Shown in pieces: positions 3,169 to 30,677 of a DNA stretch of 58,072 bases (position 1 is the first letter of the stretch; every line of letters begins with the position of its first letter). The position numbers and the translations under genes are program-made. Below the pieces are notes generated by a model, which did no database searches, was not told the origin of the DNA, and was given only the letters and a program-made list of their open reading frames with translations. The stretch covers positions 1-58,072 of the IMG/VR virus record IMGVR_UViG_3300048913_000259. The stretch is one strand, 5' to 3'. This DNA comes from a virus.

Positions 3169-3184
3169 AGACTTTCACCTTCTT

Positions 3185-3215
3185 GGGGCCGCCGGCGAAG
3201 CGGCCCCTTTTCTTT
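3185..3215 (+). terminator. GC hairpin plus T-tract oriented for the plus strand (antisense to the local operon)
   Basis: GGGGCCGC-cggcgaa-GCGGCCCC followed by TTTTCTTT. On the minus-strand RNA the hairpin has no U-tract. Confidence 0.45.
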
Positions 3216-3795: not shown

Positions 3796-3878
3796 CGTTT
3801 TATTCTCCCTAGTCTAGTTTGGCCGCCCTCTGGCGGTTGCCGAAAGGATACCCGTAAAGTTTCCTATTCGCATCAGGT

Positions 3879-4484: not shown

Positions 4485-4486
4485 GG

Positions 4487-4900
4487 TCAAACTTCCTTGA
4501 TGTGTATTCCGTGCACCGTCGCCATCAGGTGCTTCTTGTTCCGGTAGCTGGCCAGCTTGCGCGTCGGCTCGCTCTTGGCGTCCTCGACTACCAGCTGGCC
4601 GTTCTCGATGTAGGTGAAGTCGGCGTAGTAGCGCAGCGCGGCCTTCTTCTTGGCCTCGCCGGCCAGGTGCACGGCCGGCGCCAGGATGTAACGCACCTGG
4701 CGTTTCAGGTCCTGGATCACGCCGGCCGCGGCCAGCTGCTCGAGCTCGCGCCACCTGGTGGCTTCCTTGCGGCTGTCGAACAGCTGGCCATCCTGGTCGA
4801 CCTTCACGTTGTTGAATTTCGATCGCTTCGCCGGCGCCGCGGCGCGCTTGGCCTGCGCGGCCAGGTGCGCCTTCAGGATGCGATCGCCCCAGCGGGTCAT
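4487..4900 (-). CDS. DUF1064-like protein (137 aa)
   Basis: Track ORF 4487..5293 trimmed to MTRWGDRILKAHL. The KFNNVKVDQDGQLFDSRKEATRWRELEQLAAAGVIQDLKRQ pattern is typical of DUF1064. ATGA overlap with the upstream gene. Confidence 0.55.
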   Translation of the reverse strand: MTRWGDRILKAHLAAQAKRAAAPAKRSKFNNVKVDQDGQLFDSRKEATRWRELEQLAAAGVIQDLKRQVRYILAPAVHLAGEAKKKAALRYYADFTYIENGQLVVEDAKSEPTRKLASYRNKKHLMATVHGIHIKEV

Positions 4901-5166
4901 TGCCTGGTCGTGTTCGTGGTGCGGGCCTGGTGCGCGGCCAGCTCGCGCGCGCGCTCCATGTTCACGATGCCGACCTCGATGCTTTCCTTGTGGCCGTGCA
5001 TGTACAGGACCGGCGCGCCGTTGAAAGCGGCGATGTAGCGTTCCAGGTCCTGGGCCGTCACCTCGACCACTTTGCCGCCGTTCAGCTTCCACAGCGCGGC
5101 CATCAGGATGCGGTCGCGCATGCCCTCGGTCTGTTCCAGGATCGGGGCTTCGTTCAGTGCTTGCAT
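4897..5166 (-). CDS. Hypothetical protein (89 aa)
   Basis: AAGGAAG SD and balanced composition. Confidence 0.65.
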   Translation of the reverse strand: MQALNEAPILEQTEGMRDRILMAALWKLNGGKVVEVTAQDLERYIAAFNGAPVLYMHGHKESIEVGIVNMERARELAAHQARTTNTTRQ

Positions 5167-5186
5167 GTTCTTCCTTCGATGATGAT

Positions 5187-5211
5187 GCGGGCGCCCAGCT
5201 CGAGCGCCCGC
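5187..5211 (-). other. Intergenic GC stem-loop (8-bp stem) without U-tract
   Basis: GCGGGCGC-N9-GCGCCCGC, between the stop at 5220 and the start at 5166. Confidence 0.35.
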
Positions 5212-5219
5212 GGGTTGAT

Positions 5220-15114: not shown

Positions 15115-18100
15115 TTAGGCTGCTGACTTGGCTTTCACCTCCTGCACCTTCTCGTTGAACCGTTGCATCAGCTTACGCTGTTGGAGCTCGTTCTCCTTGA
15201 TCCGGTCGCGGCTGGCGCCCTTCTCCATGAGCTCGCTTTTGCGCTTGCGCAGCTCGGCGATGTCGCGCTCGACGGCCGCGCCCATTTCGGCAAGGCGCGC
15301 CTCCGGATGTTCCGCCAGGAATTCGCGCGGGTTGGCGTGATCCTTCTGGCGGCCCTTCAGCTCGTCGCCCATGCCGTTCAGCTCCTTCAGGTTCTCGTAG
15401 AACTTGGTCGACGCGGCCGATTTGTCATCGGCCTGGCCGTAGAAGCGGCCGGCCAGCGGCACCTTGTGCGCCGGCAGTTCCTCGCCCGTCACCAGGCTGG
15501 CGCCGGTCTGCCAGGCTTTCAGGGCCTCGCGGCCCACGCCGCCGGTCAGCTGGCCAGCCAGGTAATCCACCTGGTCGGGCGTCGGGCTGAACAGGCCGGC
15601 CTGGTACTTGTTGCCGCCGGTGATCGCGTTCAGGGCATAGGAAACGCCTTTGCCGAGGCCGCTGGCGGTGTCCTTCGTCCTGGTAAAGCCCGGGGTCGGG
15701 TGTAGGCCGCTGCGGTCCTCGCGCGCGATCGGCTTGCCGGTCCAATCCTTGTTGATGGCCAGGTCAACAATCGGGTCGGCCACGGTCGGCGTCATGACCT
15801 GCACCAGGTTGCCGTTGCCGATCGGGTTGAAGGTGTCCAGCAGCGCGCCGGCGACGTTGGCCAGGTGCTTGCCGATCTTCTTGCCGCCACCGATGCCGAA
15901 CTCGGTCACGGTGCGGCCGATGGTCGGCAAGAACGAATAGCCCAGCGGGTACGGGATCGTCAGGAAGTCCTTCTTGCCCGTCACCAGGCCAAGCGGAATG
16001 ACGAAGTTCTTGGCCTTGACGAATTCCGGCGGGTTGTCGTCGTCGTAGCCGGCCGCCAGCAGCATGAAGGCTTGCAGCACGCCCAGCAGCATGCCGCCGG
16101 CGACGATCTTTTTACCGGCCGGGCCGGCCAGGGTTTCGCCCATGCGCGCGATGCCCTGCGTTGCCGCGTTGAAGAAAGCGAACAACGAATTGACCTGGGA
16201 ACCGATCGCGCCCTTACGGTTGAAGTTGACGGTCAGGTTCTTGGCCAGGCTGGCCGCCTGCTGGTTGCTCATGCCGTTGGCCTTGGCGGTCTTGTAGGCC
16301 GCCAGGCGCGTCACGTTCTCGAGTGCTTCGTTGTAGTCGCTCAACCAGTCCAGCACGGCGCGGCCGGCCTTCTCGATCTGCCCGGCCTGCATCTTGCGCA
16401 GCTCCTTCGCCAGCTCGCGCCCGCGGTCTTCGCTGGTGCTGAACATGGCCCGGTAGCCGGTGATGCCGCCCTCGCGCTGGAACTCCGACCACAGGGCCGC
16501 GTCAGCGCCGGCCAGCTGCTCGAGGCGGAAGCCCTGGCGCGCAGCTGCACCGAACAGGCGCCCGGCTTCCTTGGCGAAAGCGGCCTGTTGGCCAGCGATC
16601 GGCGTGGATTCCAGGTTGACGGCGCCCTCTCCGATGTCGCGGGTGAAGTTGACGATGCCGAACACCGGGTTGTATTGCGTGTTCACGCTCGCAAACCAGC
16701 GCGTGGCCATGCCCATGATGTTCAGGAAGCGGTTGAGGCCATCGTTGCCGAGGTTCTTCAGCGACAGGGCCATGCGCATCGCGCGCTCGTTCTTTTCGTT
16801 GAAGAAAATGAAGCGGTCTTCACCGTTGACGCGCACGGCCACCACGTTCGGCGCATTGCGCAGTACCGGGTTCACGCGGCTGATAACCATGCCGGTCTGC
16901 CGGTCGATCTGGCGCTGTTTCGGCTCGTCAATGATCGCCTGCACCAGGGCCGGCGACAGGCCCATGTTGGCCAGCTCGGCCATCAGCGCCTGCGGGTTCT
17001 TCTGCGGGTTGACCGGCTTCCAGAACTCCGGGTTAGGCGCTTGCAGGGCCAGGCCGTACAGCGCCAGGTCCAGGCGGTTCTTCTCGCCGCGCACAATCGC
17101 ACGCTCGCGCGCCATCGCCACGTTCGCCAGGATGTCGACCACGGCGCGCTTCGAGCCCATGCGGGCCTTGCTGGCCGATCCGCGCACGCTGAAGCCGCTG
17201 CCGGTACCGTTGCCCTTCAGCGGGCTATCCATATCCTCACGCATCAGCGGCACATAGTGCTGATAGGTGCGGTTCCAGGTGTCGATCGTGTCCTGTTTTT
17301 CCAGGCCGTAGTCGACCAGGGCGCGCTGGGTGCCGGCAATGATCGCATCGACACGCGCGGCCAGGGCGCCGTAAGCCTGGCGCTGTGCCGGCGACAGGCC
17401 GGCCAGGTAGGCGCGGGCGTCGGCCGTCGACACGCCGGCCAGGCCGTCCGGGTTGCCCTGGTTGATGCTGGCCAGGCGGTCGTTCGCTTCCTCCGCGTGC
17501 CGCATGTGCAAGAATTCCTCGAGCTGTTCCATGCTCACGCCGCGGGCCTGCATATCGGTCAGCAGCGGCCGGAGCTCGTCCTCGAGGAACGATTTGAAGC
17601 CGGTGGCCGCGCGGCCGTGAAACAGTTCTTCCTGCAAGTACGGGTCCCAGCGGTCCGCCAGCTGGCCGTTCTGCTCGCGGATCGCCTGCACCACGCGCTT
17701 CATATCGACGTGCTTATCCTGAAGCGTCTGGATGATGTTGTCCTGCATGGTCATGCCGGGCTCCGTCCAGGTCGGCGCCACGCTCGAGGCGCGGGCATAC
17801 ATTTCGTCCGGTCCTACTTCGAGCTCGCCACCGCGGCGCGCCAGGTTCTTGTAGGCCTCGCTGGCGCGGTCCCAAATTGCCCGGCCCTGCGCCTTGGCCT
17901 GCTCGCTCATGTTGGCCACGCCGAAGCCCATCATCATGTCCAGGCTATCCATCGCCCAGCGCGGCTCGAGGTCCAACAGGTGCGCCGTCTTACCGTTGCT
18001 CTTGAGCCAGTGCTCGGCCTCGGTCATTACCTGGTCGAAGCGGCGGCGCGCGGCCATCGTCAGCGGCGACGTGTTGGCCGCGGCCGTGTCGTCGTTGGCG

Positions 18101-21100
18101 GCGCTGCGCATGGCCTGGCCGCGGCGGCCGTCCTGGTACTGGTTGATGGCGCGCATGCGCGCGAAGTCGGCGCGATCGCCGCCCATCGCCTCGAGCACGT
18201 CGCCCGAAGCGTACAGGGCAGCGTCGAGCCAGCTGGGCGCCGTTCCCGATTCGCGAAGCCCGAATAAGCTGGTGCGAACCCAATCCTTGAACCGCTGCCA
18301 CATGGTTTTGCCTTCGTACCGCTTGCCGGCCAGGTAGGCCTGCAATACCGGATCGGTCAGCGATCGAACGAAGAACTCGTCCGGGTTGCCGCGGGCCTCG
18401 GCGATGGCCAGCTCGAGGTCGCTGTTGGCGAACTTCTCGCCGATCGTCAGCTGGCGGAACTCGTTCCACAGGCCTTCAAACTGCTCGAGCGCCTTGGCCG
18501 CTGCCGGCGCCGACAGGCCCAGCAGGGCGTCGTTCTCGCGCGCCAGGCCGACCGACAGCGAACGGTAGCGCGCCGCGATCGCGACGTGCATGGCTTCGTG
18601 CAGCACGGTTTCGTAGGTCAGGCCGGTGCGGCCCTCGGCTGTGAACAGTTGCATGTGCAGCATCGGCACCAGGCTGACGACGCCGTGCACGTTCATGCGG
18701 CGGGTGTCGTCCACCGTCAGCATCAGCGTGCCCTTGGTCGGCAGCAGGTTCGCCACCTGAAGCGCCAGGTTGCGCACTTCCTTCGGCCCGGTCAGGCTCA
18801 TCGCCTTCAGGGCCTTGCGCAGCGCCTCGAGGCCGTTCAGGCTGGTGGTGCCGCCTGCCTGGCCGTCGCGTAGCAGCTTCTCGATCGCCGGCGCCACGCG
18901 CTGGCCCAGCACGGCGGCCGGCAGCGCCTTCGTCTGCCCCAGCTTGACGTCGGCCTTGGCCGCCGGCGCCATCGCGGCGGCAGCAGCTGCGGCCAGCAGC
19001 TGGCGGCGGCCCGGGTTGAACTTCGAGAACATTTCGTTGCCGCTGTTCTCGATGTACTTGACCACGCTGGACGGCGTGACCAGGGCATCGCGCTGCACCT
19101 CGAGCCAGTTGGCCAGGCCTGCCGCACCTGGTGCGTCCTGGGTGCGTACCCATTCCAGCAGCTTGTCGGCCTGGAACATGCCGCGGTGGTCGGCGATTTC
19201 CTCCATGTGATCCAGCAGCGTCGACGGGATGCCAAGATCGCCGGCCAGCGAATTCTGCTCTGCCAGGCCTGCGCTCACTTCGTCCAGCTTGCCGGCCTCG
19301 GCCATGAAGTCGGCGCGCGCCTCGGCGGTCTTGAACAGGAACCCGCGTTTGGCGTTGCCGCCGGCATAGGTGCTGTACCGGCCGCCGTGCTGCTTGGCGA
19401 TCGCCAGCACGGCCTTGTAGGCGTCGGTGCTGGTGCGGTTCAGCATCGCGGCGCCGAACTGCTTGACGCCGGTTTGCGTGTGGTCGAACTCGAATTGTGC
19501 GAAGTAGCGTTCTGCGCCGGTCGCGCCAGGCTCGGCCGTCCTGGCCGGCTTGGTCGACCTGGTGGGCGTCGGCTTCGCTTCCTCGATCGCGACATCCTCG
19601 CCGGCGCTGGGGTTGGTGCGGCCCGGCAGCGTCACGTTCTCGAGCGCGTCGAACAGGCCTTCAACGTCCTCGATGTGGGTGTAGTCGCGGTGCATCGGTA
19701 CCGGCGCCATTTCCTCATCGGCCAGCTTGTCGAGCACAACGATGCGCGTCATGGCGCCGGTACCGGCGCGGCCGAACGTCGCGGACGGCAGCAGGATGTG
19801 CGCCACCAGGTGCAGGTCCTTCGGGGCGTCGTCGCCATAGAGGAACTTATCGAAGCGCTTGTCAGCGTCCGGCCCGGTCGGCAGCAGCGCCACGATCCGG
19901 CCGCCCTCGTTCAGGTGCTTGTATGCCTTGGCCAGGTGCGGCGTCGACAGCGAGCCACCTTTGCCGAAGGGCGGATTCATCACGATGGCGTCGTACTTGT
20001 TGACCAGGTGCAGGTCCTCGAACTTCGATTGCACGAACTTGCCAGGGCCTTCGATGGCCAGGCGGGTCTTCGTGATAAGCGCGGTTTCCGGCTCAACGAT
20101 CGTCTTGGCCGACTGTGCCGGGAACCAGCGCGCGATCGCGCCATGCCCTGCGCTCGGCTCGAGCACGCTCTCGCCCGTCCGGATGTCCGCCCATTCCACC
20201 ATCTTCAGGCCGACCGGCTCGGGGGTGGCGAAGTAGTCCTTGCCCTCGGCCGCCTTGGTGCTGCTGTTGCGCTTGAGCTGGCCGTAGTAGAACGATTTCG
20301 CGCGGTCCCATTCGGTCAGCAGCTTGGCGTTCTGGCGATCGCGGGCCTTGCCGCCCTTGCCGTCGTCGTCGCTGACAGGGTGCGGGCCGGCGTCCTCGTA
20401 GGCCTCGATGATGGATTCCTTCAGGCCGCGGGCCTGTTCGCCCATCGCCAGCGCCTCGGCGATGTCGGCGCGCTCGGCGATCGTCTGCGCGAAGGTCCAG
20501 CGTTCCCACATGGTGCCGGTCGACACGTAGCGCATCGGGGCGTCCGTCACCTGGCCGGTGCGGTAGCTGCGGCCCTCGAGCTGGATCAGCGCGGTGGGCT
20601 TGGCCGGCATGCCGACGTTGACCTGCACGCGCATGTAGCGGCCGGTGGTGTCGTGCAGGCTGATGCCCTCGCGGCCCTTGTCGGCTTGCAGGATCAACAG
20701 CGGGTTATCGAAGTTGTCGGCGTTGAACAGGCGCTTGTTGTCGGCCAGCTGCTTGTCCGCCACGTCGCCGTTGTGCACCAGGGCGTTCGGGTAGGCGCCG
20801 GTCAGGATCTGAAGCGCGCTCTGCGTCGGGAACTTCAGGTTCACCAGGTCACGGCGCTCGGCCTTGAACTTGTCGGCCAGCTCGGCCAGGTCGATTTCCT
20901 TGTAGGTGTTGCCGTCCCATTCGCCGTGTGTGCCGTTGATGCCCTGCATGGTGAACGGGTTGAAGGCGCCGCCCTTCTTGTAGTCGTGGATGACGATGAC
21001 CTTTCGGCCGCGGTCCAGGTGCTCCTGGATCATCGGCAGCGATTCCTTGGCCTTGATCGCCTCGAGCAAGTAGCGGCGCGCCAGGTAGCTGAATTGCTTC

Positions 21101-24100
21101 ATCAGCGGCTGGTACAGGTGCTTGTATTCCGGGTGCTCGCGGACGTACTCGAGGCCTTCGTCAATCTTGGTACCCAGCGCGGACGGGATCATGACGAATT
21201 TGCGGTCATAGTCCGCTTCGACGTCGAGCATGCGGCCGGACAGGGCGCCCTCCTTCTTCAGCCATTCGTTGAACTGGCGGGCCATCAGGCCCTGGTTCAC
21301 GTTGGCGTCCGGCTCGGTCAGCTTGTGGTAGCGGATACGGTAGCCGAAGTGCTGGACGAAGAAATGCGCGCGGCCGTCCTGGTTGCTGTTGCCGATCCGG
21401 CCGTCTGCCGGGTATTCAAACAGGTAGCCCTCGGCCCAATCCACGGCCTTGATGTAGGCGAACGGGGTGGCCGACAGGAACACGGCTTTGGGGCGCGCCA
21501 GGTTGGAGCTGGCCACGGCAGCGAATTCCTCGCGCTGTGGTTCCTCGCGCTTGCGCAGCTGGTCCCACAGCTTTTTGGCCTGCTCGCTGTCCTTGTTGGG
21601 TACCGCGGCCAGCTGGTCGAAGATGTCGCGGTTGACCATGCGGCTGTAGCGTGCGAAGCCTTCCGGGTGGCGGGTCAGGGCGCGCAGCGTTTGCAGCGCG
21701 TCGGTCATTTTGCCGTCCTTGCTGGCCATGAGGTAGTGCGCCTCATCGGGCAGAACGAAGTCCCAAGTACGATCAGCCAGCGTAGCGTTGTCGCCGAAGT
21801 TGGCGTAGGTGGTGATGACCATGCCCTTGCCGGCGTCGGTGGTGCTGTCGAGCGCGGTGATGTTCAGGCCGAGGTTCTTGCCGCTGTCGATCCAGTCCTG
21901 GGCAATCTCATTGTTCGGCACCACGATGATGCCGTTACCTTTGCCCTGGCGCTCGAAGCGTTTGGCGATGCCGAGGCCGGTGAAGGTCTTGCCGGTGCCG
22001 GTGCCGTTGGTGAAGACCACGCCCGGCTTCTTGTCGGCCTGGGCGAAGCGGGTTTCTGCGAAGTGCACGTCGTCGCGCTGCGGCGGCAGCAGGAACGGTA
22101 ACGTGGCGTCGATGTTGGCGCGGTCGCCCGGCACCACATCGACGGCTTCAGCGGCCAGCTGCTCGAGCCGCTTCTCGTCTAGCGATAGACGCGCTCCAAG
22201 AGCTGTAGCAGGTTCCCCGATTGCGTCGGATTGAGATTTCGCTCCCGCGTTCCCACCGTCGCGGCCTCCTGCGGTGTCTCGAGGTTCGGCAGTACTTGCG
22301 CCAGGTCCGCGCCCTCCGTCGACGCCAGGTAGGTCGCGATCGCCCTGCGCTCCACCAGTAGCGGCATCACGTCCAGGTACGCCAGCGCGGTCGGCCGATC
22401 CAGTCCCTGCTTCATCAGGTCCTGCACCAGGTGCCCGTGTTCTTCCGCCCGATCGTGGTCGGACATCGAAAACATCCGGCTCAGTTTCTCGTTCTTCATC
22501 CGGCCGGTTGCCTGGATCGCGTTCAGTATCGTTGCTGGTACCGCTGTCAGCATTGCTCTCTCCGTTGAGTTTGATTTTTCCTGCTTCAAAGTCGTCAATA
22601 TAGCGCAGTACGTAAGGCTCCATCTTGGCCGTGCCTTCCTTACCGTACAGCTTCAGCAGGTCGCGCACGATCGCGCGCATGACAACCTTGATGTCGTGCG
22701 TGGCTTCGCCGAGGTATTCGATGGCCGCGGTGAAGTAGGGCTTCACGCGCTCGTATTTCGATTCCTCGAAGGGCATCACGCCCTGCTTGACCTGGGGCGC
22801 GATGCCCAGCGCCTCGCCGATGCCGCCCAGCGCCGCGGCGTAGCCGATTGCCGTGTTCTTCACGGCGTCGACGGCGGCCTGGCCGGCGGTGCGGTCATCC
22901 TTCACCCATTCGCCGGCCTTCTTGCGGTAGCCCAGCTCGTCGCGCATGACGGCGTTGACTTCGCCGCGCAGGTCCTTGCGGTGCGCCGCGATGTGCTCGG
23001 CCACCTGGGGCGCGATCGTGCCGGCCTTCTTCAGCGACTGGTAGACATCCGGGATTTTGCCCAGCTTGGCGATCGGCGCCACCAGGGCGCGCTGGATCGG
23101 GTCATCCGATCGCATCCAGTAGGCGTGCGCGTCTTCCTCGCGCTCCTGCTTGGTGGTCTTGATGCCCGTTTCGCGCGGCGTCACTTCCCACTTCAGGCCG
23201 GTGTGCTTGTTCTTCGCGTAGGCCTCGAGCATGGCCAGCTTCTCGCTGGTGCGGCTGTCGCCGTTGGCGTCCTTGAAATAGATTTCGCCGGTCGAGCTCA
23301 CGCGCTCGATGGTCATGGCCTTGCCGCTGGTGAGGTAGCCGACATTGCCGTTGAACGTCATGGTGATGGTGTCGCCCACCTTGGCGCCCAGCACTTCCTG
23401 CATGCGCTGCTGCGCCGCGCGCTGCTTGTTGACCGTCTTGGCGCCCTTGCTCTTGGCCTGCTGCTGCTCGAGGTTGCCCTCTTTGCCGTCCCACAAGATG
23501 CCGAAGTATTCCGGCGACAGCATGGCATCGCCGTCGCGGTTGTAGAAGTCGTAGGCGTAATCGAAGCTCTTGCCGGCCTTCTTCGCGTCGGCGATCTGCT
23601 CGAGCGCGCGGTTTTCCAGCCTGGCCAGCACGGAGTCGGGGCCGTTCAGCAGGCCCTCGATGCTGTTGTTGTTCCGCACCTGAAGGCGAATCGCGTCCAG
23701 GGCGTGCTTCGTGAAGCGGCCGGCCGGCAGGGTGGCCAGGTCCTTCATCGCGGCCAGGCGCTCCTTCTCGATCCGCTTGCGCTCGTCGGCCGTCTTGGCC
23801 GATTTCTTCGCTTTCTTGGCGCGCTCGATGGCCAGCATGGCGTTCAGGCGGCCGGCTTCCTGGTCCGGGGTGGCGAACGTGTTGTTGGCGATCGTCTTGG
23901 CCGGCTTGCGCTGCTGCTTGGCCAGCTGCGCCTTCTCGGCCTCGAGGCCTTCCGGCGCCGGCGCGGCCGGCTCGTCGTTCAGGCCCATCGCGCCGGCTTC
24001 TTCCTCGAGGATGGAATTGAACAGGGCGCTCCGATCGCTGCCCGGCTCGTTCAGGCCCATCGCTTCCGCTTCTTCCTCGATCATGGCGTGGAACATTTCG

Positions 24101-27100
24101 GACAGGTCGCCGACCGGCTTGGCTTCCATTTCCTCGATCGCCAGGGCGGTTTCCTGGCCAGCCAGGTCCGGCAGCTGGTTCGGCAGCTGCTCGGTGCTCG
24201 AGCTCTGCACCTGGGTGTCGTCGGTCGCGTTGGCGCCCAGCTGGCGCAAGTACTCGCCCAGCTGGCCACGCTGCTCGCCGATGCCGCCGCTGACGGCGTT
24301 CACGGCCGCGTTCTGGCCGATAAATCCGGCCTGGCGCAGGCGCTGGATGTAGGTCTGCGCCAGGTCGCGGTACAGCTCGCCGCCGGCGATGAACACCTGG
24401 TTGAAGTCCTTGCCCTTGAAGGCGTCGACGTCCAGGCCCTTGTCGATCAGCTGGCGCTGGCGCGCCTTGTCCATCGGGCGCTCATAGCTGTCCAGCATGG
24501 TGTCGCCGTGCACAAGGCCATGCTCGGCCGAGAGAATCCACACGTCAGGGCGCACGCCCTCGGTCGGCATCCACTTGCGCAGCACGTCGAACATGACGCC
24601 CTTGTACAGGTCGACGGCCTTGTGCCGGCCTTCCAGCTTGGCGCCGGAACAGGCGATCAGCAGCAGCGGGCGCGCGTTGTCCGCGTTGTACTGGTGCACG
24701 CGCGGCTGCACGATCTTGGCCAGCTCATGCGACAGGAAGGCGCTGCGGCCCTCTGCCTCGTTCAGCGGCTCGCCCAGCGAACCGATCGACACGCGCGCCA
24801 GTTTGCCGTCCTGCTTGTGGCCAGGTGTCTCGATGCGCACGGTGACGTTATCGCCGTCGATGGATTCGATGCGGGCATTGGCGCCGATCGTGTACTGCAT
24901 CCACTGTTCGCCCTCGATGCTGGCGACGGCCGGCAGGCTGGCCAGCATGCCCGGCTTCCAGTACTCGCGGGCCTCTTGCAGGCGCTTCGCCTCGGCTTCG
25001 CGCTGGCGGTCCTGCTCGGCGATCGCGTCCTGGAGCTCGCGCTCCTTCCTGGTCAATTTCCCGGTTTCGGTGCCTTTTGTTGCACTTTTTGCCGGTTTCG
25101 TTTCAGGTTCCGGTGCTTTTGATTCACTTTTCAGCTCTTTCAATGCAGCATCGGCCTCGGCCTCGGCGCCGTCGTTGCCCATCGCTTCATCGCGCGCGCG
25201 CTGGTTGCCGATCCGCCAGGCCATCAGTTCTTCGTCGTCCAGGTTGAACGGCGGCGCCATCTTGCCCGCCTTGCCGGCCTGGTAGCCGGCGGTGGCGGCG
25301 CGGTCGATCGCGGCATCATCGACGGGTGCCTGGTTGTCGAAAAGACTGTCCTGGCCGAATACGGCCGACTCGGCCGACTGGCCCAGCTGGAAGTTATCGG
25401 CGCTGTCCTCGATGCGCGCCTTGGTCTGCTTGGCGTCGTCTTCGCGCTTGCGCTGCTGCTCGAGGCGGTCGCGCTCGGCCTGGCGGGCCTTGGCCGCGGT
25501 TTCCTCGGCGTCCTGGCGCGCCACCACGTCGGCGGCGCTGTAGCTGGTCAGGAGCTCGTCTGTTCCTTCGCTCTCAGTTGCAGCTCGGCCAGCACCTTCC
25601 GGCGCATTGCCGGCGGCATTTCCATCAGCTTCGCCTTGATCGCTTCGCGCGCTTCCTGCTTTTTGGCTTCCAAAGATTGCATCGAGTTCTTCCTCAGTAA
25701 GGTCGTTCATGGGGCGGCCACCGTCCAGCTGGATGTCGTCCAGCTGCGCGTCGGCCAGTTCGTCGGCGGTGATGAGGTCAGCGTAGTTCTCGATCAGCGC
25801 CTGGTCTTCAACGGATTCGGCGCCGATCGCCTCGCGGCGGTCCTCGCGCGCCTGGTGTGCTGCTACCACTTCGTCATACAGCTGGCCGTAGTCCTTGCCG
25901 GTGGTGTCGATGCCCAAGCTTTCGGCCTCGGCCGCCAGCTGGCCGTGGGCTGCGGCTTCCATCTGGCTGTCGATCGCGGCCGGCTGGCGAATCACTTCCT
26001 TGTTGGCCAGGGCGCGCTGGATCATGCTGGCCAGCTTGCGCGTGCCGCCGGTGTCTTCGTCGCTGTCGATGTCGTGCTGGGTGATGAAGCCTTCTTCCTC
26101 TGCCAGCAATGCGAGCTCGTCCAGGCGCTTGCCGGTCTTCCGGATGACCGGGCCGTAACCTGGTACCGGCGGATTGCCCTTCTGGCCAGGCTCTACGCCC
26201 AAGTCCGCGCGATCGGCCGGCGAGATTCCATGATTGGCCAGGAAGGCCAGGAACGGGTTGCTCGAGCGCAGGCGCTCGCGCAGGCGCTCGGCCTGGCGGC
26301 GGGCTTCGGCCGCGCGCACGGCCGGGTCGACCACGCCAGTGCCCAGCGTGACCTGGGCGCTGGTGTCCACGCCCGGGTGGCGCTTGGTCTTGATGCCCAG
26401 CGCCAGGGTCGCGGCTTCCTCGTTCCGGTTCAGGTGCTTGCGGTCGATCGGCTTGACCGGCTTGCCCTGGCGCTCGAGCTTCGCATTGCGCTGCTCGGCC
26501 TTGGCCACCTGGTAGCGGCGCGCGGCCAGGCCGTCGAGCGCGTTGACGATCTCCTTCAGCTTGCGCTCGAGCTGCTGCGCTTCGTGCGGCGCGTTGCTGT
26601 GCGCCTCGCCCGGCTTGTAGCCCAGCTCGGCCAGCTTCGGCGCGATTTCGTTCCACTTCTTCACGGCCGCGGCGACGATCGGCGCCGGCAGGGCGGCGGC
26701 GGTGTTCGTCACCTTGGCCATGCCTTCCGGGGTCATGGGCACATGCTCGGCCGGCTGCACCTGGCCGTTTTCGCGCGCATGGTCGGCGATCGCCTGGCGT
26801 GCCTTGTCCTCGCGGAAAGCTACCTTTTCTTCGTCCAGCTGGCCGCGGCGTGCTTCGTCGGCCAGGCCGGTTTCGATCGCCTTGGCCATGCCGTGCACGC
26901 CGGCGGTGCGCAGGTCGCCCAGCAGCTTGTCGATGCGCGGCGCGAACGGGCTGGCGTGCCAGGGGGTGTTATCGCCCTCGATCAGCGCGCGCAGCTGCTT
27001 CAAGCGTGCTTGCTGGTCGCGGTAGCCGTTCGATCCAGGCTTATACCGGGATTCGCCCATCCATTCGACGTGCTTGCGCGCTTCCTTGAGGCTGCTGCTG

Positions 27101-29592
27101 GCCTCGATGACCTTGAACACTTCTTCAGGGCTGTACTTGTTGACGTGCAAGGCGTTGGCGATGTGGCCGCGGTCCATGCCGGTCGCTTGCGCCAGGTCGT
27201 AGTCGATCGCGTTTTCCTTGGCGCGGACCTGCTTGGTGTCTTCGGCCAGCGGGACGGATGCGCGCCAGTCGGGGCTGTACTTGATGCGCGGCGCGCCGGC
27301 TTCGCCTTCGCTGGTGGTGGCGCTCGGGAACTCCTTCACGGTGTCCAGCAGCTGGCGGATCGGCGCGTTCAGGCGGATCGCGCGGGTAGGCGTGCCCTGG
27401 TCGACGTCGCCCAGCCATTGGTGGTGGCCGTCGACTACGTGGCCATCGCTCGAAATGAGAATCGAACGGTTGCCGCCCTGGTAGTCCAGGGCCTTCTGCA
27501 CCTTGGCCAGCGAGAATTCCGCTTGCGTCGGCTTCAGGGTGTGCGGGTGCACTTCCACCTGGTCGTGCGTGATGCCGCGCGCGTTCAGGAAGTTCACCAG
27601 GGCGCCGCGGTGCTCGGCCTTGATCTGCGGCATGCTGCTGCGCGGGATGCCCAGCGTTCCCGTTTCGGCCGGGAAGTGATGCCATTCCTGGCCATCCTGG
27701 TCGCGGCTGCTGAAAACGTCCGTCAGGGTCGGGATGCCGTCGATGCGATCGTTCAGGGTGGGGATGTCGGGGCGCTCGTTCAGCGTCGGGATGCCGTCAG
27801 GGCCGGCCAGGACGTCGTTCAGGGTCGGGATGGTCGGATCATTGGCGCGGCGCCATACGCTCGGCGTAGGGGCTCCTGGCGCGCCTGGCGCTGCTTCTGC
27901 GGCCGGCGCGGCCGGGAGGTGGCCCAGCTGCTCGAGCATCGCGCGCGCGGGGTCGCCGTCCAGGGTGGCGTTCGGTGCGGTGGCGGTGCCCAGCATGCCG
28001 CCCTGCTCGAGCGCGTCGATTTCCGCGGCGATCGCGGCGGCGCTCGAGGTCGCGCCGGCCGGTGGCTGTGCCATGACGGCCTGCGCGGCGGCGATCGCGT
28101 CGTCTACGCTCGAGGCGGCGCCGATGTCGGCGACGGTCGGCGCCGGCGCGGCGGGTGCGGCCGGTGGTGCCGGCGGCGCCTGGTTCGGGCTCAGTCCTTG
28201 GGTGGTCCACTTGGCCAGGGCGGCCTGGCGTGCGGCTTCAGCTGCGGCAGCTGCTGCCGCGGCCGGGTCTTCGGCCTGGTGCCCGGCGCCGCTGACGTGG
28301 GAGCCGGCGCCGAGTACGGCGCCCAGCGCGCCGGCGAAGGCGACACGCTTGGCCAGGTTGTTGCCGCCCGGGGCGTTGCTGGTGGCGACAAACTCGCCGC
28401 CGGCGTTGCCCAATTCCTCGCCCATTTCCTGCATGCCTTCGTTGGCCACGGCCTTGACCATCTTGCCGGCCGCGGTGCCGGCCGACTTCACGCCAGCCAT
28501 GCGGCGCGCAATCTCGCCCTCGGCGCCGCCGTGGAAGATCATGCCGGCCAGGACCGACATACCGGCCGAGAATGCTGCGCCGCGGTAACGGTCGGACAGG
28601 CTCGCGTCCTTCAGCTCGTCGCTGGTGAAAGTGTCGGATGCGTTCTGTGCGGCGACGGTGGCGGTGCTGGCGATCGTCGCGGCGGTGCCGGCGGCGGCGG
28701 CGCTGGCGCCCATGCGGCCGGCGACACTGACAGCGCCCTTGGCCGCGCCGGCCGGCAGGAACATGCTGCCGATCGTCGTGATGCCGTTGTCGATCATGAT
28801 TTCCGGGTTGGCCTTCAGGAAGTTGTACATATCCGTCAGGTCGGCGTTCGGGTCCGCCATCAGCGCCTGGAAGGCTTTGCCCTGCTCGCCCAGCGTCGGG
28901 TCGGCGATCGCGTCATCAATCGCCTTCATGCCCTCGGCCATGCTGGCCGATCCGGCGGCGCCCACCTTGCCGCCGGTGGCCAGCTGCGCGATGTCGAACA
29001 CGCCTTTCAGCGCGGTCGGGCCGATCTTGAGCGTACTGGCCGCGGCGTTGCGGACGTTCTTCTGGAAGTTGCCGGCCAGGTTCTCGGCGCTGTAGGTCCG
29101 GAGCTTCTGCTCATGTTCGGCTTTGTCGCGGGCGGCGTCGATCGCGCCCTGGTCCATGACACGGCGCCACAAATCGTCACTCTTGGCGTGCTGGTGGCTG
29201 GCTGCTACCTGCATCTTGGCCAGGGCGTCGGCCGGCGCGATCGCGGCCAGGCGCGGGTCGAGCGGGTCCTTGTACTCGTCGGCCAGCACCTTCGCATAGG
29301 CCTGGTCGTACATCGGGCCCATGCCGGCCGGTGCCGTTACCTTCGGCTCGGTACCGGGCTTGTAGGAGCCCATCACGCCGAGGTCTTCCTCGCCGGGCGC
29401 CAGGATCGGGACACTGGTGATTGCTTCCTTGATGGCCTGGCCCATCCGGGTCAACATGCCGGGCGGCCCGGCTGGTTCTTTCGGGGCGGCGAACTGTGGG
29501 AAGTTCGATTCGATCGCACCACGCATTTCGTCTTCGCTCATCCCATCGGGGAAATTGAGCTGGGTGCCGTCCGGCAAATTGACTTTTGGCAT
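15115..29592 (-). CDS. Giant polyvalent virion protein (4,825 aa) with ParB-like, SNF2-type helicase, N6-adenine MTase and zincin modules; DarB-like
   Basis: One uninterrupted ORF. Its start overlaps the upstream stop as TAATG. Domain motifs are listed as separate features. Its position after the internal virion protein genes matches the Bcep22-type layout. Confidence 0.85.
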   Translation of the reverse strand: MPKVNLPDGTQLNFPDGMSEDEMRGAIESNFPQFAAPKEPAGPPGMLTRMGQAIKEAITSVPILAPGEEDLGVMGSYKPGTEPKVTAPAGMGPMYDQAYAKVLADEYKDPLDPRLAAIAPADALAKMQVAASHQHAKSDDLWRRVMDQGAIDAARDKAEHEQKLRTYSAENLAGNFQKNVRNAAASTLKIGPTALKGVFDIAQLATGGKVGAAGSASMAEGMKAIDDAIADPTLGEQGKAFQALMADPNADLTDMYNFLKANPEIMIDNGITTIGSMFLPAGAAKGAVSVAGRMGASAAAAGTAATIASTATVAAQNASDTFTSDELKDASLSDRYRGAAFSAGMSVLAGMIFHGGAEGEIARRMAGVKSAGTAAGKMVKAVANEGMQEMGEELGNAGGEFVATSNAPGGNNLAKRVAFAGALGAVLGAGSHVSGAGHQAEDPAAAAAAAAEAARQAALAKWTTQGLSPNQAPPAPPAAPAAPAPTVADIGAASSVDDAIAAAQAVMAQPPAGATSSAAAIAAEIDALEQGGMLGTATAPNATLDGDPARAMLEQLGHLPAAPAAEAAPGAPGAPTPSVWRRANDPTIPTLNDVLAGPDGIPTLNERPDIPTLNDRIDGIPTLTDVFSSRDQDGQEWHHFPAETGTLGIPRSSMPQIKAEHRGALVNFLNARGITHDQVEVHPHTLKPTQAEFSLAKVQKALDYQGGNRSILISSDGHVVDGHHQWLGDVDQGTPTRAIRLNAPIRQLLDTVKEFPSATTSEGEAGAPRIKYSPDWRASVPLAEDTKQVRAKENAIDYDLAQATGMDRGHIANALHVNKYSPEEVFKVIEASSSLKEARKHVEWMGESRYKPGSNGYRDQQARLKQLRALIEGDNTPWHASPFAPRIDKLLGDLRTAGVHGMAKAIETGLADEARRGQLDEEKVAFREDKARQAIADHARENGQVQPAEHVPMTPEGMAKVTNTAAALPAPIVAAAVKKWNEIAPKLAELGYKPGEAHSNAPHEAQQLERKLKEIVNALDGLAARRYQVAKAEQRNAKLERQGKPVKPIDRKHLNRNEEAATLALGIKTKRHPGVDTSAQVTLGTGVVDPAVRAAEARRQAERLRERLRSSNPFLAFLANHGISPADRADLGVEPGQKGNPPVPGYGPVIRKTGKRLDELALLAEEEGFITQHDIDSDEDTGGTRKLASMIQRALANKEVIRQPAAIDSQMEAAAHGQLAAEAESLGIDTTGKDYGQLYDEVVAAHQAREDRREAIGAESVEDQALIENYADLITADELADAQLDDIQLDGGRPMNDLTEEELDAIFGSQKAGSARSDQGEADGNAAGNAPEGAGRAATESEGTDELLTSYSAADVVARQDAEETAAKARQAERDRLEQQRKREDDAKQTKARIEDSADNFQLGQSAESAVFGQDSLFDNQAPVDDAAIDRAATAGYQAGKAGKMAPPFNLDDEELMAWRIGNQRARDEAMGNDGAEAEADAALKELKSESKAPEPETKPAKSATKGTETGKLTRKERELQDAIAEQDRQREAEAKRLQEAREYWKPGMLASLPAVASIEGEQWMQYTIGANARIESIDGDNVTVRIETPGHKQDGKLARVSIGSLGEPLNEAEGRSAFLSHELAKIVQPRVHQYNADNARPLLLIACSGAKLEGRHKAVDLYKGVMFDVLRKWMPTEGVRPDVWILSAEHGLVHGDTMLDSYERPMDKARQRQLIDKGLDVDAFKGKDFNQVFIAGGELYRDLAQTYIQRLRQAGFIGQNAAVNAVSGGIGEQRGQLGEYLRQLGANATDDTQVQSSSTEQLPNQLPDLAGQETALAIEEMEAKPVGDLSEMFHAMIEEEAEAMGLNEPGSDRSALFNSILEEEAGAMGLNDEPAAPAPEGLEAEKAQLAKQQRKPAKTIANNTFATPDQEAGRLNAMLAIERAKKAKKSAKTADERKRIEKERLAAMKDLATLPAGRFTKHALDAIRLQVRNNNSIEGLLNGPDSVLARLENRALEQIADAKKAGKSFDYAYDFYNRDGDAMLSPEYFGILWDGKEGNLEQQQAKSKGAKTVNKQRAAQQRMQEVLGAKVGDTITMTFNGNVGYLTSGKAMTIERVSSTGEIYFKDANGDSRTSEKLAMLEAYAKNKHTGLKWEVTPRETGIKTTKQEREEDAHAYWMRSDDPIQRALVAPIAKLGKIPDVYQSLKKAGTIAPQVAEHIAAHRKDLRGEVNAVMRDELGYRKKAGEWVKDDRTAGQAAVDAVKNTAIGYAAALGGIGEALGIAPQVKQGVMPFEESKYERVKPYFTAAIEYLGEATHDIKVVMRAIVRDLLKLYGKEGTAKMEPYVLRYIDDFEAGKIKLNGESNADSGTSNDTERDPGNRPDEERETEPDVFDVRPRSGGRTRAPGAGPDEAGTGSADRAGVPGRDAATGGAQGDRDLPGVDGGRGPGASTAEPRDTAGGRDGGNAGAKSQSDAIGEPATALGARLSLDEKRLEQLAAEAVDVVPGDRANIDATLPFLLPPQRDDVHFAETRFAQADKKPGVVFTNGTGTGKTFTGLGIAKRFERQGKGNGIIVVPNNEIAQDWIDSGKNLGLNITALDSTTDAGKGMVITTYANFGDNATLADRTWDFVLPDEAHYLMASKDGKMTDALQTLRALTRHPEGFARYSRMVNRDIFDQLAAVPNKDSEQAKKLWDQLRKREEPQREEFAAVASSNLARPKAVFLSATPFAYIKAVDWAEGYLFEYPADGRIGNSNQDGRAHFFVQHFGYRIRYHKLTEPDANVNQGLMARQFNEWLKKEGALSGRMLDVEADYDRKFVMIPSALGTKIDEGLEYVREHPEYKHLYQPLMKQFSYLARRYLLEAIKAKESLPMIQEHLDRGRKVIVIHDYKKGGAFNPFTMQGINGTHGEWDGNTYKEIDLAELADKFKAERRDLVNLKFPTQSALQILTGAYPNALVHNGDVADKQLADNKRLFNADNFDNPLLILQADKGREGISLHDTTGRYMRVQVNVGMPAKPTALIQLEGRSYRTGQVTDAPMRYVSTGTMWERWTFAQTIAERADIAEALAMGEQARGLKESIIEAYEDAGPHPVSDDDGKGGKARDRQNAKLLTEWDRAKSFYYGQLKRNSSTKAAEGKDYFATPEPVGLKMVEWADIRTGESVLEPSAGHGAIARWFPAQSAKTIVEPETALITKTRLAIEGPGKFVQSKFEDLHLVNKYDAIVMNPPFGKGGSLSTPHLAKAYKHLNEGGRIVALLPTGPDADKRFDKFLYGDDAPKDLHLVAHILLPSATFGRAGTGAMTRIVVLDKLADEEMAPVPMHRDYTHIEDVEGLFDALENVTLPGRTNPSAGEDVAIEEAKPTPTRSTKPARTAEPGATGAERYFAQFEFDHTQTGVKQFGAAMLNRTSTDAYKAVLAIAKQHGGRYSTYAGGNAKRGFLFKTAEARADFMAEAGKLDEVSAGLAEQNSLAGDLGIPSTLLDHMEEIADHRGMFQADKLLEWVRTQDAPGAAGLANWLEVQRDALVTPSSVVKYIENSGNEMFSKFNPGRRQLLAAAAAAAMAPAAKADVKLGQTKALPAAVLGQRVAPAIEKLLRDGQAGGTTSLNGLEALRKALKAMSLTGPKEVRNLALQVANLLPTKGTLMLTVDDTRRMNVHGVVSLVPMLHMQLFTAEGRTGLTYETVLHEAMHVAIAARYRSLSVGLARENDALLGLSAPAAAKALEQFEGLWNEFRQLTIGEKFANSDLELAIAEARGNPDEFFVRSLTDPVLQAYLAGKRYEGKTMWQRFKDWVRTSLFGLRESGTAPSWLDAALYASGDVLEAMGGDRADFARMRAINQYQDGRRGQAMRSAANDDTAAANTSPLTMAARRRFDQVMTEAEHWLKSNGKTAHLLDLEPRWAMDSLDMMMGFGVANMSEQAKAQGRAIWDRASEAYKNLARRGGELEVGPDEMYARASSVAPTWTEPGMTMQDNIIQTLQDKHVDMKRVVQAIREQNGQLADRWDPYLQEELFHGRAATGFKSFLEDELRPLLTDMQARGVSMEQLEEFLHMRHAEEANDRLASINQGNPDGLAGVSTADARAYLAGLSPAQRQAYGALAARVDAIIAGTQRALVDYGLEKQDTIDTWNRTYQHYVPLMREDMDSPLKGNGTGSGFSVRGSASKARMGSKRAVVDILANVAMARERAIVRGEKNRLDLALYGLALQAPNPEFWKPVNPQKNPQALMAELANMGLSPALVQAIIDEPKQRQIDRQTGMVISRVNPVLRNAPNVVAVRVNGEDRFIFFNEKNERAMRMALSLKNLGNDGLNRFLNIMGMATRWFASVNTQYNPVFGIVNFTRDIGEGAVNLESTPIAGQQAAFAKEAGRLFGAAARQGFRLEQLAGADAALWSEFQREGGITGYRAMFSTSEDRGRELAKELRKMQAGQIEKAGRAVLDWLSDYNEALENVTRLAAYKTAKANGMSNQQAASLAKNLTVNFNRKGAIGSQVNSLFAFFNAATQGIARMGETLAGPAGKKIVAGGMLLGVLQAFMLLAAGYDDDNPPEFVKAKNFVIPLGLVTGKKDFLTIPYPLGYSFLPTIGRTVTEFGIGGGKKIGKHLANVAGALLDTFNPIGNGNLVQVMTPTVADPIVDLAINKDWTGKPIAREDRSGLHPTPGFTRTKDTASGLGKGVSYALNAITGGNKYQAGLFSPTPDQVDYLAGQLTGGVGREALKAWQTGASLVTGEELPAHKVPLAGRFYGQADDKSAASTKFYENLKELNGMGDELKGRQKDHANPREFLAEHPEARLAEMGAAVERDIAELRKRKSELMEKGASRDRIKENELQQRKLMQRFNEKVQEVKAKSAA
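18586..18603 (-). other. Zincin HExxH motif (LHEAMH) within the giant protein (about aa 3664)
   Basis: The reverse complement reads CTG CAC GAA GCC ATG CAC. Context is TYETVLHEAMHVAIAARY. Confidence 0.6.
19850..20245 (-). other. N6-adenine DNA methyltransferase domain of the giant protein
   Basis: SAM-binding motif VLEPSAGHGAIARWF and catalytic motif IVMNPPFGKGG (NPPF). Confidence 0.8.
20470..22070 (-). other. SNF2/DEAD-like helicase domain of the giant protein
   Basis: Walker A VVFTNGTGTGKTFTG (21961..22020), motif II LPDEAHYLM (21721..21760), and the C-terminal lobe ...ADKGREGISLHD...QLEGRSYRTGQ. Confidence 0.8.
22179..22553 (-). CDS. Nested out-of-frame ORF (124 aa) inside the giant gene; function unknown
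   Basis: ATG at 22553 is preceded by GGAGAGAGCA. Third positions are almost all G/C in this frame, while the giant frame drops to about 45% GC3. Composition is balanced: MLTAVPATILNAIQATGRMKNEKLSRMFSMSDHDRAEEHGHLVQDLMKQGLDRPTALAYLDVMPLLVERRAIATYLASTEGADLAQVLPNLETPQEAATVGTRERNLNPTQSGNLLQLLERVYR. The track lists it as 22179..22598 with a TTG start. Confidence 0.55.
   Translation of the reverse strand: MLTAVPATILNAIQATGRMKNEKLSRMFSMSDHDRAEEHGHLVQDLMKQGLDRPTALAYLDVMPLLVERRAIATYLASTEGADLAQVLPNLETPQEAATVGTRERNLNPTQSGNLLQLLERVYR
27330..27660 (-). other. ParB-like nuclease/NTPase domain of the giant protein (about aa 645-755)
   Basis: IPRSSMPQIKAEHRGALVNFL...LKPTQAEFSLAKV...NRSILISSDGHVVDGHHQW. Confidence 0.65.
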
Positions 29593-30677
29593 TAATTGAA
29601 CTTTCCGGTTTTAGGGTCGTAATTGAGAGTCTTGCCAGTGCTCGAGCTGCTGCTCGAGCTGCTGCCGCCCTTGGCCAGCTTGTCGCGCGCGGCCACCAGC
29701 TGCATCGCGCGTTCCATTGCCGTTTCGGGGGTCAGGTCGCCGAACTTGTCGGCAGACAATAGTTTAGCGGCAATATCTTCCGGAGCCAGGTGTTTCTTTT
29801 CGGTGACGTAATCGCCCAGCTGCTCGGGGGTGAATCCGAGGTTGTCGCGCAACCACTCGAGGTTCTGCACCATCGCCGACTTCTGGCCGGACTTGCCGCT
29901 TTGGCCGGCTTCCAGGCGCTGCATCATGGCCTCGAAGCGGAGCTCTGCGGCGCGGTCGCGCTGCTCGTCGTGGCCAGCTGCACGGCGCTCGGCACTCTCG
30001 CGGTCTTCCTTCGCCTGGCGTTCCTTGCGGTCGGCTTCGGCGGCGGCCAGGCGCTCCTTCAGGTCGGCCGCCTTCGTGGTCGCTTCGTCCTTCAGGACTG
30101 AGCCCAGCATGCCGGTGCCGGCGATGTACGCCAGCGGATCGCTTTGCAGGGTTTCGTCCAGGGCCGCGTGCGCGGCTTCGCTGGTGGTGCGCTTGCGGGT
30201 CTTGCCCTCGACGGCCTTGTTGTTGAGCTCTACCTGTGCGTCGACCTGGCGCGTGATCTGCGCAATGATGCCCTCGGCGTCGGCCTTCTGTTCCGGGGTC
30301 GCGTTCGGGTTGTCGCGCACGGCCTGCCACTGGCGAATCGTGGCGGCGGCCTTGGTCGCGTCCATCTCGAAGCCTGGCCCGGTACCGACCGCGTTGGCGC
30401 TATCGCGCGTGATGCCGGTTTGCGGCACGGTCTGCGCTTCGACCGGCAATTCCTCGCTCGCCTTGGCCTTGACCACGTTCGAGAACCGTTCGGCCGCGCG
30501 CGCGCCCATCGCTTCCTTCATGGCCATGAGGCGCTGCTCGGTGTCCAGGCGGGTGTCGGCCGCGCGCTGCTCGGCGTCGATCCGCTGCTGTTCCTTCATT
30601 TCGTCGCCGATGATGCTGGCGCCGGTGTTGGCCGCGGCGCCGATGCCGGTCATGAGTGCATTTGCCCAATCGCCCAT
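29592..30677 (-). CDS. Internal virion / ejection protein candidate (361 aa)
   Basis: Coiled-coil and charged, with a poly-Ser run near the C-terminus. GGGAGG SD. It sits immediately upstream of the giant gene. Confidence 0.5.
   Translation of the reverse strand: MGDWANALMTGIGAAANTGASIIGDEMKEQQRIDAEQRAADTRLDTEQRLMAMKEAMGARAAERFSNVVKAKASEELPVEAQTVPQTGITRDSANAVGTGPGFEMDATKAAATIRQWQAVRDNPNATPEQKADAEGIIAQITRQVDAQVELNNKAVEGKTRKRTTSEAAHAALDETLQSDPLAYIAGTGMLGSVLKDEATTKAADLKERLAAAEADRKERQAKEDRESAERRAAGHDEQRDRAAELRFEAMMQRLEAGQSGKSGQKSAMVQNLEWLRDNLGFTPEQLGDYVTEKKHLAPEDIAAKLLSADKFGDLTPETAMERAMQLVAARDKLAKGGSSSSSSSSTGKTLNYDPKTGKFN

Follow-up and report, generated by a model that had tools for sequence, protein, structure and literature searches.

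A conserved protein-coding gene probably embedded in the +1 frame of a giant DarB-like polyvalent gene of a tailed phage

Background

Can one segment of a very large phage gene encode a second, folded protein in another reading frame, and are both frames maintained? This question is raised by the IMG/VR virus record IMGVR_UViG_3300048913_000259, of which we analysed positions 1 to 58,072 (58,072 nucleotides, nt; hereafter the window), a segment of a tailed-phage genome that is rich in guanine and cytosine (GC, ~66%) and carries portal, tail-fibre, amidase and replication-initiation genes. On its minus strand, a giant open reading frame (ORF) at 15115..29592 encodes a DarB-like polyvalent protein, and a 139-amino acid (aa) ORF with a TTG start (22179..22598) on the same strand lies wholly within it, at an offset of +1 relative to the giant frame. 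An earlier inspection of the letters and ORF translations, made without database searches (the sequence-only reading), had pointed out that the coding signature appears to change frame here and had proposed an overprinted or inserted gene, a recent compensated double frameshift, or translational recoding. Such cases matter because an out-of-frame gene that is both long and deeply conserved is seldom found in tailed double-stranded DNA (dsDNA) phages, and is difficult to demonstrate there. We consider it very probable that 22179..22553 on the minus strand codes for a protein and lies as a gene wholly inside the polyvalent gene, in its +1 frame, with the mechanism, origin and partner role proposed below. 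On this view the large gene probably overprinted the small one, and the partner role is the least certain part.

Results and discussion

The coding signature switches frame inside the giant gene

Over the whole giant gene, a computed frame plot gave GC of 0.67, 0.45 and 0.87 at codon positions 1, 2 and 3, respectively. This pattern changed at giant codons ~2320–2465, where GC at third positions (GC3) went down to 0.30–0.57 and GC at giant position 1, which is position 3 of the nested frame, went up to 0.80–0.93; the usual giant-frame GC3 was back at ~22182, coinciding with the nested stop codon. The plot bears out the frame switch described in the sequence-only reading and, together with translation, the 124-aa product, its ATG, and its end in a TAG at the point where giant-frame GC3 resumes. 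That reading had also called the other same-strand alternative-frame ORFs junk, and we agree: among those of at least 110 codons in the giant gene, none had a coding-like profile of GC at the three positions, and their GC2 of ~0.85–0.89 or GC1 of ~0.82–0.94 mark them as shadows of the giant frame.

Two more patches of low GC3 (~0.35–0.5) occur in the giant gene, at 25630–25740 and 25130–25200 (giant codons ~1285–1320 and ~1465–1485). Considered as further nested genes, both were rejected: they are acidic or lysine-rich linkers, and stops break both alternative frames.

An open second frame is unremarkable in so GC-rich a genome, its simulated probability in the window being 0.40–0.47. The nested ORF goes far beyond chance because of the compositional frame switch and the comparative evidence given below, and not because of openness alone.

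The nested frame carries start signals of its own

Read from the internal ATG at 22553, the nested product (MLTAVPATILNAIQ...NLLQLLERVYR) has 124 aa and ends at the TAG at 22181..22179, and positions 1–122 of the family hidden Markov model (HMM; see below) cover the whole of it. The GGAG that precedes the ATG (Table 1) lies in an AT-richer, weakly structured patch (~22554..22600). GC of the 40 nt before the ATG (−40..−1) is 0.42 compared with 0.65 locally, and the minimum free energy of folding of −30..+20 is −4.7 kcal/mol compared with a mean of −14.0, equally weak folding being found in 1% of local windows. The initiation region was likewise AT-richer across the loci described below, with a mean folding energy for −30..+20 of −6.8 kcal/mol against a background of −12.2. 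An ATG stood at or near position 1 of the family profile in all 27 scored loci, most of which also had a purine-rich, Shine-Dalgarno-like run 6–12 nt 5' of it (judged by eye; locus L010 had none), and 11 of the 27 had a +1-frame stop just 1–4 codons before the conserved ATG. Scans of 21900..23100 found no promoter-like, terminator-like or Rfam element, frameshift elements included. As far as sequence signals can tell, then, the embedded gene has its own initiation signals. An ATG-to-ACG change at the nested start would be silent in the giant frame (AAT to AAC, both Asn), so the nested gene could be removed without changing the giant protein.

The embedded arrangement is conserved across distant phages

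We searched 50,697 phage records by tblastn with three queries, the nested product and two family members. Six isolated phages were matched (Ruegeria phage 45A6, Vibrio phages D274 and 1.232.O, Klebsiella phage vB_KpnP_ZX1, Serratia phage Parlo and Pseudomonas phage Skulduggery), and these three queries found the family in no further phage of that set. In each of the six, the match lay at offset +1 of an annotated giant coding sequence (CDS) whose frame 0 was open. The giant CDS, labelled ‘hypothetical’, ‘PLxRFG protein’, ‘DarB-like antirestriction’ or ‘N-6 adenine-specific DNA methylase’, was the sole feature annotated at the nested-gene site in 6/6 phages.

Scanning viral contigs added 14 loci; a scan with the single window protein gave one marginal match. 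Among the first 21 loci, 18 had the nested ORF (123–161 codons from stop to stop) in the +1 frame of an ORF that was open throughout the fetched DNA, and one more (L007) had it in the +1 frame of a 1,616-codon ORF. Two bacterial contigs (L033 and L034) showed the same arrangement, so that a whole ORF lying inside another, on the same strand and in another frame, was found in the window, the six isolated phages, 19/21 loci of this first set and both of these contigs. Embedded loci ranged in GC from 0.30 to 0.67, and homology of the nested protein could be followed down to ~25% identity across this range. Close relatives were sought with less success: blastn of the 1-kb region found none among isolated phages, where only the helicase part matched, and none was found in bacterial genomes, in which a narrower alignment then found five loci.

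What follows the nested gene is nearly constant. The giant protein continues with a helicase, and at E ≤ 1e-10 this helicase subtype was found in exactly the same six phages (co-occurrence 6/6); helicases of this type come directly after the nested gene in 16 of 19 loci.

Two IMG/VR contigs (L012 and L016) have the nested gene without the following helicase and differ in their downstream segments, which resemble the upstream domain of the giant protein in L012 (..TPYLEAFLGDLRAGRINLD) and are of another kind in L016 (..LVLYHGTDADF..). From these two, the embedded gene may move as a module within mosaic polyvalent genes. In a further contig (L009, IMGVR_UViG_3300049043_000362, 1986–6158), the giant gene is seemingly split across several frames and the nested-frame ORF reaches a length of 264 codons; a pseudogene, errors of assembly or another architecture could lie behind this.

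Selection appears to maintain both frames

Selection was assessed in seven sequences, the window and six relatives (L019 and L023–L027), at 63–83% nested-protein identity. Variable columns at nested codon positions 1, 2 and 3 numbered 53, 49 and 79, which makes the giant-frame third position the least variable. The ratio of nonsynonymous to synonymous change (dN/dS, Nei-Gojobori) in the overlap was 0.47 for the nested, 1.31 for the giant and 0.99 for the third frame, and because such ratios are biased in overlapping frames by the other frame, we used the flanks as control, where it was 0.31–0.33 for the giant frame and 1.1–1.6 for the +1 frame. Selection thus appears clearly reversed between overlap and flanks, and the per-frame conservation test named in the sequence-only reading comes out in favour of a constrained nested frame.

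Openness of the giant frame was evaluated by resampling the synonymous codons of the nested protein with local codon usage. The probability of an open giant frame was below 0.001 in loci at GC 0.30–0.49 and 0.40 in the window, and its summed log10 over 19 loci was −27.6. The sequence-only reading had held that high GC3 in the nested frame keeps the giant frame open automatically, which is correct for this genome and fails for its AT-rich relatives, where the frame is open all the same. Taken together, these data strongly indicate that the nested frame is under purifying selection and that the giant frame is kept open by selection, both products being maintained.

The product belongs to a large family with a confident predicted fold

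A profile search of 5.8 billion proteins returned 176 matches, of which the best 120 were 105–196 aa long and all started with methionine. When 1.84 billion cluster representatives were searched exhaustively with the HMM, 567 matched (442 at E ≤ 1e-10), mostly of 115–140 aa and, in most of the best 150, with the domain starting from residue 1; what we say of the family covers these best 120 and best 150. AlphaFold2, run on a 78-sequence alignment, predicted eight helices with a mean local confidence score (pLDDT) of 91.5 and a global score (pTM) of 0.85, so that structure prediction, also raised as a check earlier, gave a confident fold. The sequence-only reading had been unable to place the 124-aa product in a family, and so were we: there was no significant named family in Pfam, PHROGs, NCBIfam or PADLOC, a sequence-profile search of PDB gave nothing below E = 0.1, and Foldseek of the model against PDB and BFVD gave no match at E < 1.

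The family is acidic (median isoelectric point, pI, 4.8), has a conserved N-terminus of the form M-x-Q-V-P-x-x-I-W-N, and keeps P64, L65, E68, A71, I72, P89 and A97 (window numbering) invariant. On these grounds the nested gene is predicted, with good support, to encode a member of a large and previously unnamed family of acidic, all-alpha proteins of ~120–130 aa.

A sub-threshold Pfam match to the winged helix-turn-helix (HTH) family HTH_24 was seen at nested residues 9–31 (E = 0.055), together with one to HTH_AsnC (E about 0.06), and residues 69–116 of family member P0077 gave a sub-threshold NCBIfam match to region 4 of extracytoplasmic-function sigma-70 factors (sigma70-ECF, E = 0.004). 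An HTH_24 or sigma-70 region 4 identity was set aside, these matches being below curated cut-offs and without an HTH match in Foldseek, and the family being acidic; they serve as no more than a lead.

Some homologues are free of overlap or fused to the upstream domain

Members of the family also occur outside giant genes. An Alphaproteobacteria metagenome-assembled genome (MAG; L037) has a non-overlapped 121-aa gene (5001..5366), preceded by AGGAGG and with neither of the other frames open, in a genomic context that gave no functional clue. A Bradyrhizobium locus (L035) has a 440-codon ORF that begins with the nested domain and has no overlapping long ORF, and further members carry the domain at their N-terminus, followed by variable C-terminal extensions.

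Other members join the nested domain to its upstream neighbour in the giant protein. In P0137, P0156 and P0211 this upstream domain lies in frame, N-terminal to the nested domain, and P0214 has the two in reverse order; a profile of the upstream region matched the first three at E ~1e-8 and P0214 at E = 4e-6, and BLASTP of the upstream domain to P0156 gave E = 4e-5. P0156 is a separate gene (L030, 6001–7242) that fuses the upstream domain, the nested domain and a ~165-aa C-terminal domain, in an integrase/AlpA/AAA_25 island adjoined by Dcm-Vsr and by an SNF2 helicase with MmeI-type methyltransferase. P0239 (L032, 3562–5262; 566 aa) has two copies of the nested domain and DUF6794, and lies in an AT-rich (GC 0.32) integrase/HTH_17 island.

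One apparently free-standing copy proved to be embedded as well. At L020 (5553–6539) and L021 (Thermodesulfobacteriota MAG JBFMAY010000031), the nested gene is in the +1 frame of a 328-aa ORF that comprises the upstream domain and linker without the helicase, within an element with AlpA and resolvase; the module is here either the remnant of a truncation or present in minimal form.

The giant gene and its linker

In the giant frame, the overlap reads quite differently from the nested product (Table 1). Hydrophobic residues make up 6% of it in the window, compared with 31% of the nested product and 28% of the downstream giant sequence, and the corresponding means over 18 loci are 9%, 33% and 28%. 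Gly, Ala, Asp, Arg, Ser and Pro abound in it where the locus is GC-rich, and Ser, Thr, Asn and Glu in L014, the most AT-rich locus. The segment looks like a flexible linker between the upstream helical domain and the helicase. The Walker A motif of this helicase is downstream of the nested stop, as had been claimed, at a distance of 58 codons instead of about 50. Taken with the selection results, the picture is one of a conserved dual-coding region, apparently a folded protein in the nested frame and a linker kept open by selection in the giant frame.

Two Pfam domains scored above threshold in the giant protein, ResIII at aa 2520–2625 and LPD38 at aa 4518–4713. Weak matches to methyltransferases of the N6-adenine type at aa 3142–3234 were below the Pfam cut-off (MTS 20.2 bits compared with 23), and PHROG DNA-methyltransferase families matched the protein. 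Genes matched by tblastn of the helicase segment are annotated ‘DarB-like antirestriction’ or ‘PLxRFG protein’. With a superfamily 2 helicase, a weak N6-adenine methyltransferase match and an LPD domain in one multidomain giant encoded among structural genes, the protein is of the polyvalent type. In its N-terminal half, DUF6884 matched significantly at aa 1644–1744 (E = 7e-12), and a weak, sub-threshold Pfam match to ribosome modulation factor (RMF) was seen at aa 1427–1468 (E = 0.004). The giant ATG (29592..29590) shares one base with the TAA of an upstream 361-aa ORF (29592..30677), forming TAATG, an overlap that suggests translational coupling.

Table 1 Features of the giant gene and its embedded gene (positions in the window)
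Feature	Position	Strand	Description and basis
Embedded +1-frame gene	22179..22553	-	ATG 22553..22551, TAG 22181..22179; predicted 124-aa all-alpha protein; translation, homologues, dN/dS, AlphaFold
Shine-Dalgarno-like GGAG	22560..22563	-	6 nt 5' of the nested ATG; sequence
TTG-to-ATG in-frame extension	22554..22598	-	Outside the gene; family profile begins at the ATG
Giant host gene	15115..29592	-	4,825-aa DarB-like polyvalent protein; ORF, Pfam and PHROG matches
Giant-frame reading of the overlap	22179..22552	-	Giant codons ~2347–2471; Gly/Ala/Asp/Arg/Pro-rich, hydrophobic-poor linker
Upstream domain of the giant protein	22582..22770	-	FEESKYERVKPYF...MRAIVRDLL...MEPYVLRYIDDFEA; translation; fused to the nested domain in some integrative-element proteins
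Helicase module start	21718..22178	-	Right after the nested stop; TLPFLLPPQRDDV motif, Walker A GTGTGKT 22005..21985, Pfam ResIII aa 2520–2625

Proposed expression, origin and function

We propose that ribosomes start independently at the internal GGAG-N6-ATG, within the weakly structured, AT-richer patch of the mRNA, and that this would release the 124-aa protein in free form, while ribosomes coming from 29592 would stay in frame 0 across the overlap and complete the polyvalent protein. As to origin, the small-protein frame is probably the older one, because it has the GC3 typical of the genome, a folded product and non-overlapped homologues, compared with the low-complexity product of the other frame. 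The giant frame would then have overprinted the small gene when the flanking modules were joined into one polypeptide, and such module fusion by alternative-frame read-through would come about most readily where GC is high and chance alone often leaves such a frame open (P ~0.4). Of the ‘overprinted or inserted gene’ put forward in the sequence-only reading, the overprinted gene with a linker is what the evidence favours (conservation in +1, its own ATG, the usual Shine-Dalgarno-like run, the reversal of selection, the fold and the non-overlapped homologues). The word ‘inserted’ does not suit a gene present in all six phages of the helicase subtype and across GC of 30–67%.

The small protein is probably a non-covalent partner of the giant protein, as a chaperone, regulator or subunit, which might dock on the adjacent upstream domain, on the N-terminus of the helicase, or on both; we hold this with lower confidence than the rest, as the weakest step. 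It is suggested by Rosetta-stone reasoning, since the upstream and nested domains form a single chain in other mobile elements, by the constant place before one helicase subtype together with the co-occurrence in isolated phages, and by the embedding, which ensures that the nested gene is inherited together with its own part of a highly mosaic gene.

Several points weigh against parts of this explanation, in addition to the bias of dN/dS in overlapping frames dealt with above. Translation from the nested ATG is inferred from signals in the DNA, and fold and family searches offered no clue to function. The upstream domain is not universal, the Vibrio-phage loci and the group of L012 and L016 differing before or after the nested gene, and the partner may therefore be something other than this domain. 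AlphaFold modelled the P0156 fusion with a pLDDT of 73 and a pTM of 0.55, with the nested domain confident and without estimates of inter-domain error, so no interface between the domains is shown. Finally, the family matches beyond those listed could still hold an in-frame copy inside some giant protein.

A bolder version can be put forward only tentatively and, in our judgement, has rather less than an even chance of being right: that one DarB-like antirestriction helicase-methylase subtype depends on the embedded protein as an obligate subunit or regulator translated separately, and that the giant gene arose when a small gene that already existed was read through in another frame, which fused two large modules across it and left the small gene functional. 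If so, this would be an undescribed way of assembling polyvalent proteins, and a deeply conserved dual-coding region of tailed dsDNA phages would be one that current annotation pipelines systematically miss.

Alternative explanations

The one serious alternative accepts the gene and questions its partner. The product could act on the host and leave the giant protein unbound, as an anti-defence or regulatory factor that works independently and simply travels along in a permissive linker. Several observations fit this: the family is moderately acidic, occurs in integrase/AlpA-type islands beside restriction-modification-like genes, appears as an N-terminal domain with variable C-terminal extensions and shows the weak, sub-threshold HTH and sigma-region-4 similarities, and the upstream domain is not found everywhere. 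A specific link to neighbouring parts of the giant protein is favoured instead by the near-constant place ahead of one helicase subtype and by the in-frame fusions with the upstream domain, and neither PDB nor BFVD gave a fold match to known DNA mimics or HTH proteins. We regard a purely host-directed role as somewhat unlikely, and keep it in view when we speak of a partner of the giant protein.

Recoding, by which ribosomes would slip into +1 near 22553 and make a truncated giant protein ending in the nested domain, akin to the natural fusions, is very improbable. Single-chain proteins with the upstream and nested domains do exist, and the window has 33 open +1-frame codons leading up to the ATG. 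In the 11 loci with a +1 stop 1–4 codons before the ATG, however, almost no room is left for a slip, given the conserved N-terminus, and no shared slippery motif was seen by eye in the start-region sequences. Moreover, the ATG is conserved, most loci have the Shine-Dalgarno-like run, the site is unstructured and without an Rfam element, and most family members, among the matches listed, begin at residue 1. The recoding offered in the sequence-only reading is thus not upheld.

There is an equally slim chance that the nested ORF is untranslated and that its conservation reflects RNA structure, constraint on a DNA site or an artefact of GC-rich composition. A 124-codon open +1 frame is indeed not improbable in this genome (P = 0.47), but substitutions are codon-periodic in the nested frame, homology at the protein level reaches ~25% identity over the full range of GC, non-overlapped and domain-fused homologues exist, and the family alignment yields a confident AlphaFold fold.

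Least probable of all is a recent compensated double frameshift, by real indels or sequencing errors, that pushed an ancestral giant-protein domain out of frame here: the nested product does read like a domain between two giant-frame domains, and in-frame fusions to the upstream domain occur elsewhere, but the same +1 layout recurs in distant lineages (six independently sequenced phages, more than a dozen metagenomic contigs at GC 0.30–0.67 and two bacterial contigs), no phage locus has the domain in the giant frame, no giant protein among the family matches listed has it in frame, and the giant frame is actively kept open. A double frameshift in deep time may still be the origin, because some integrative-element proteins carry the upstream and nested domains in one frame.

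Significance and comparison with known systems

The family comprises at least 567 clusters, yet the six phage genomes annotate the giant gene only and the family libraries searched hold no model; it is apparently hidden by gene callers that do not allow one gene within another. The gene comes immediately before the helicase of DarB-like proteins. Little is understood of how these proteins are assembled, packaged and controlled, and a dedicated small partner, if it is one, would give a direct experimental handle on them. Likewise, a large gene that overprints a small one would be an unusual route to module fusion. Literature searches, of incomplete coverage, found no description of this embedded gene and no proteomic or ribosome-profiling report on its product.

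The classic embedded phage gene is Rz1 of phage lambda, which lies wholly in the +1 frame of the spanin gene Rz. As here, a same-strand +1 gene sits inside another with a ribosome-binding site of its own, and both products are maintained. Rz and Rz1 tie together the genes of cooperating products, an interaction that we only infer in the present case. The host protein here is of ~4,800 aa and of a virion-type, polyvalent kind, compared with ~150 aa for Rz; the embedded product is predicted to be soluble and all-alpha, and not a lipoprotein like Rz1; and the overprinted segment is a disordered-looking linker. The two systems have no sequence or functional relationship.

Second products from one gene are also familiar from the internal start of lambda C/Nu3 and from frameshifting in the tail-chaperone genes G/GT. 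There, two polypeptides come from one stretch of a late-operon mRNA, the smaller serving the assembly of the larger, a relation like the one that we propose. Those products share sequence with the large protein, in frame or with a shifted C-terminus, whereas the embedded product shares no residues with the giant protein and has its own start.

In overprinted viral genes, one frame typically encodes a folded protein and the other a low-complexity, hydrophobic-poor one. The overprinted genes of small viruses (phiX174 A*/B/K/E; tombusvirus p19/p22) are the subject of reviews (PMC8227390, PMC6195259). They resemble our case in reading one segment in two frames, in the pairing of a folded with a low-complexity product and in asymmetric selection. 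The newcomer in small viruses is a small accessory protein, whereas here the small folded protein is suggested to be the older one, overprinted by a linker of the giant. In a dsDNA tailed phage of ~58 kb, extreme size pressure is also not an obvious driver.

The closest likeness of the host gene itself is to DarB of phage P1 and the polyvalent proteins of Iyer et al. 2017 (PMC5512222), with which it has in common the helicase, the weak methyltransferase match, LPD38 and structural-gene neighbours, and relatives of the giant gene are annotated as DarB-like antirestriction. The text of that paper contains neither ‘frameshift’ nor ‘overlapping’, from which we take it that no embedded gene is described there. 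Embedded +1 genes of phages are thus known; what appears to be new here is a deeply conserved one within the genes of giant polyvalent proteins, the larger gene being probably the one that overprints.

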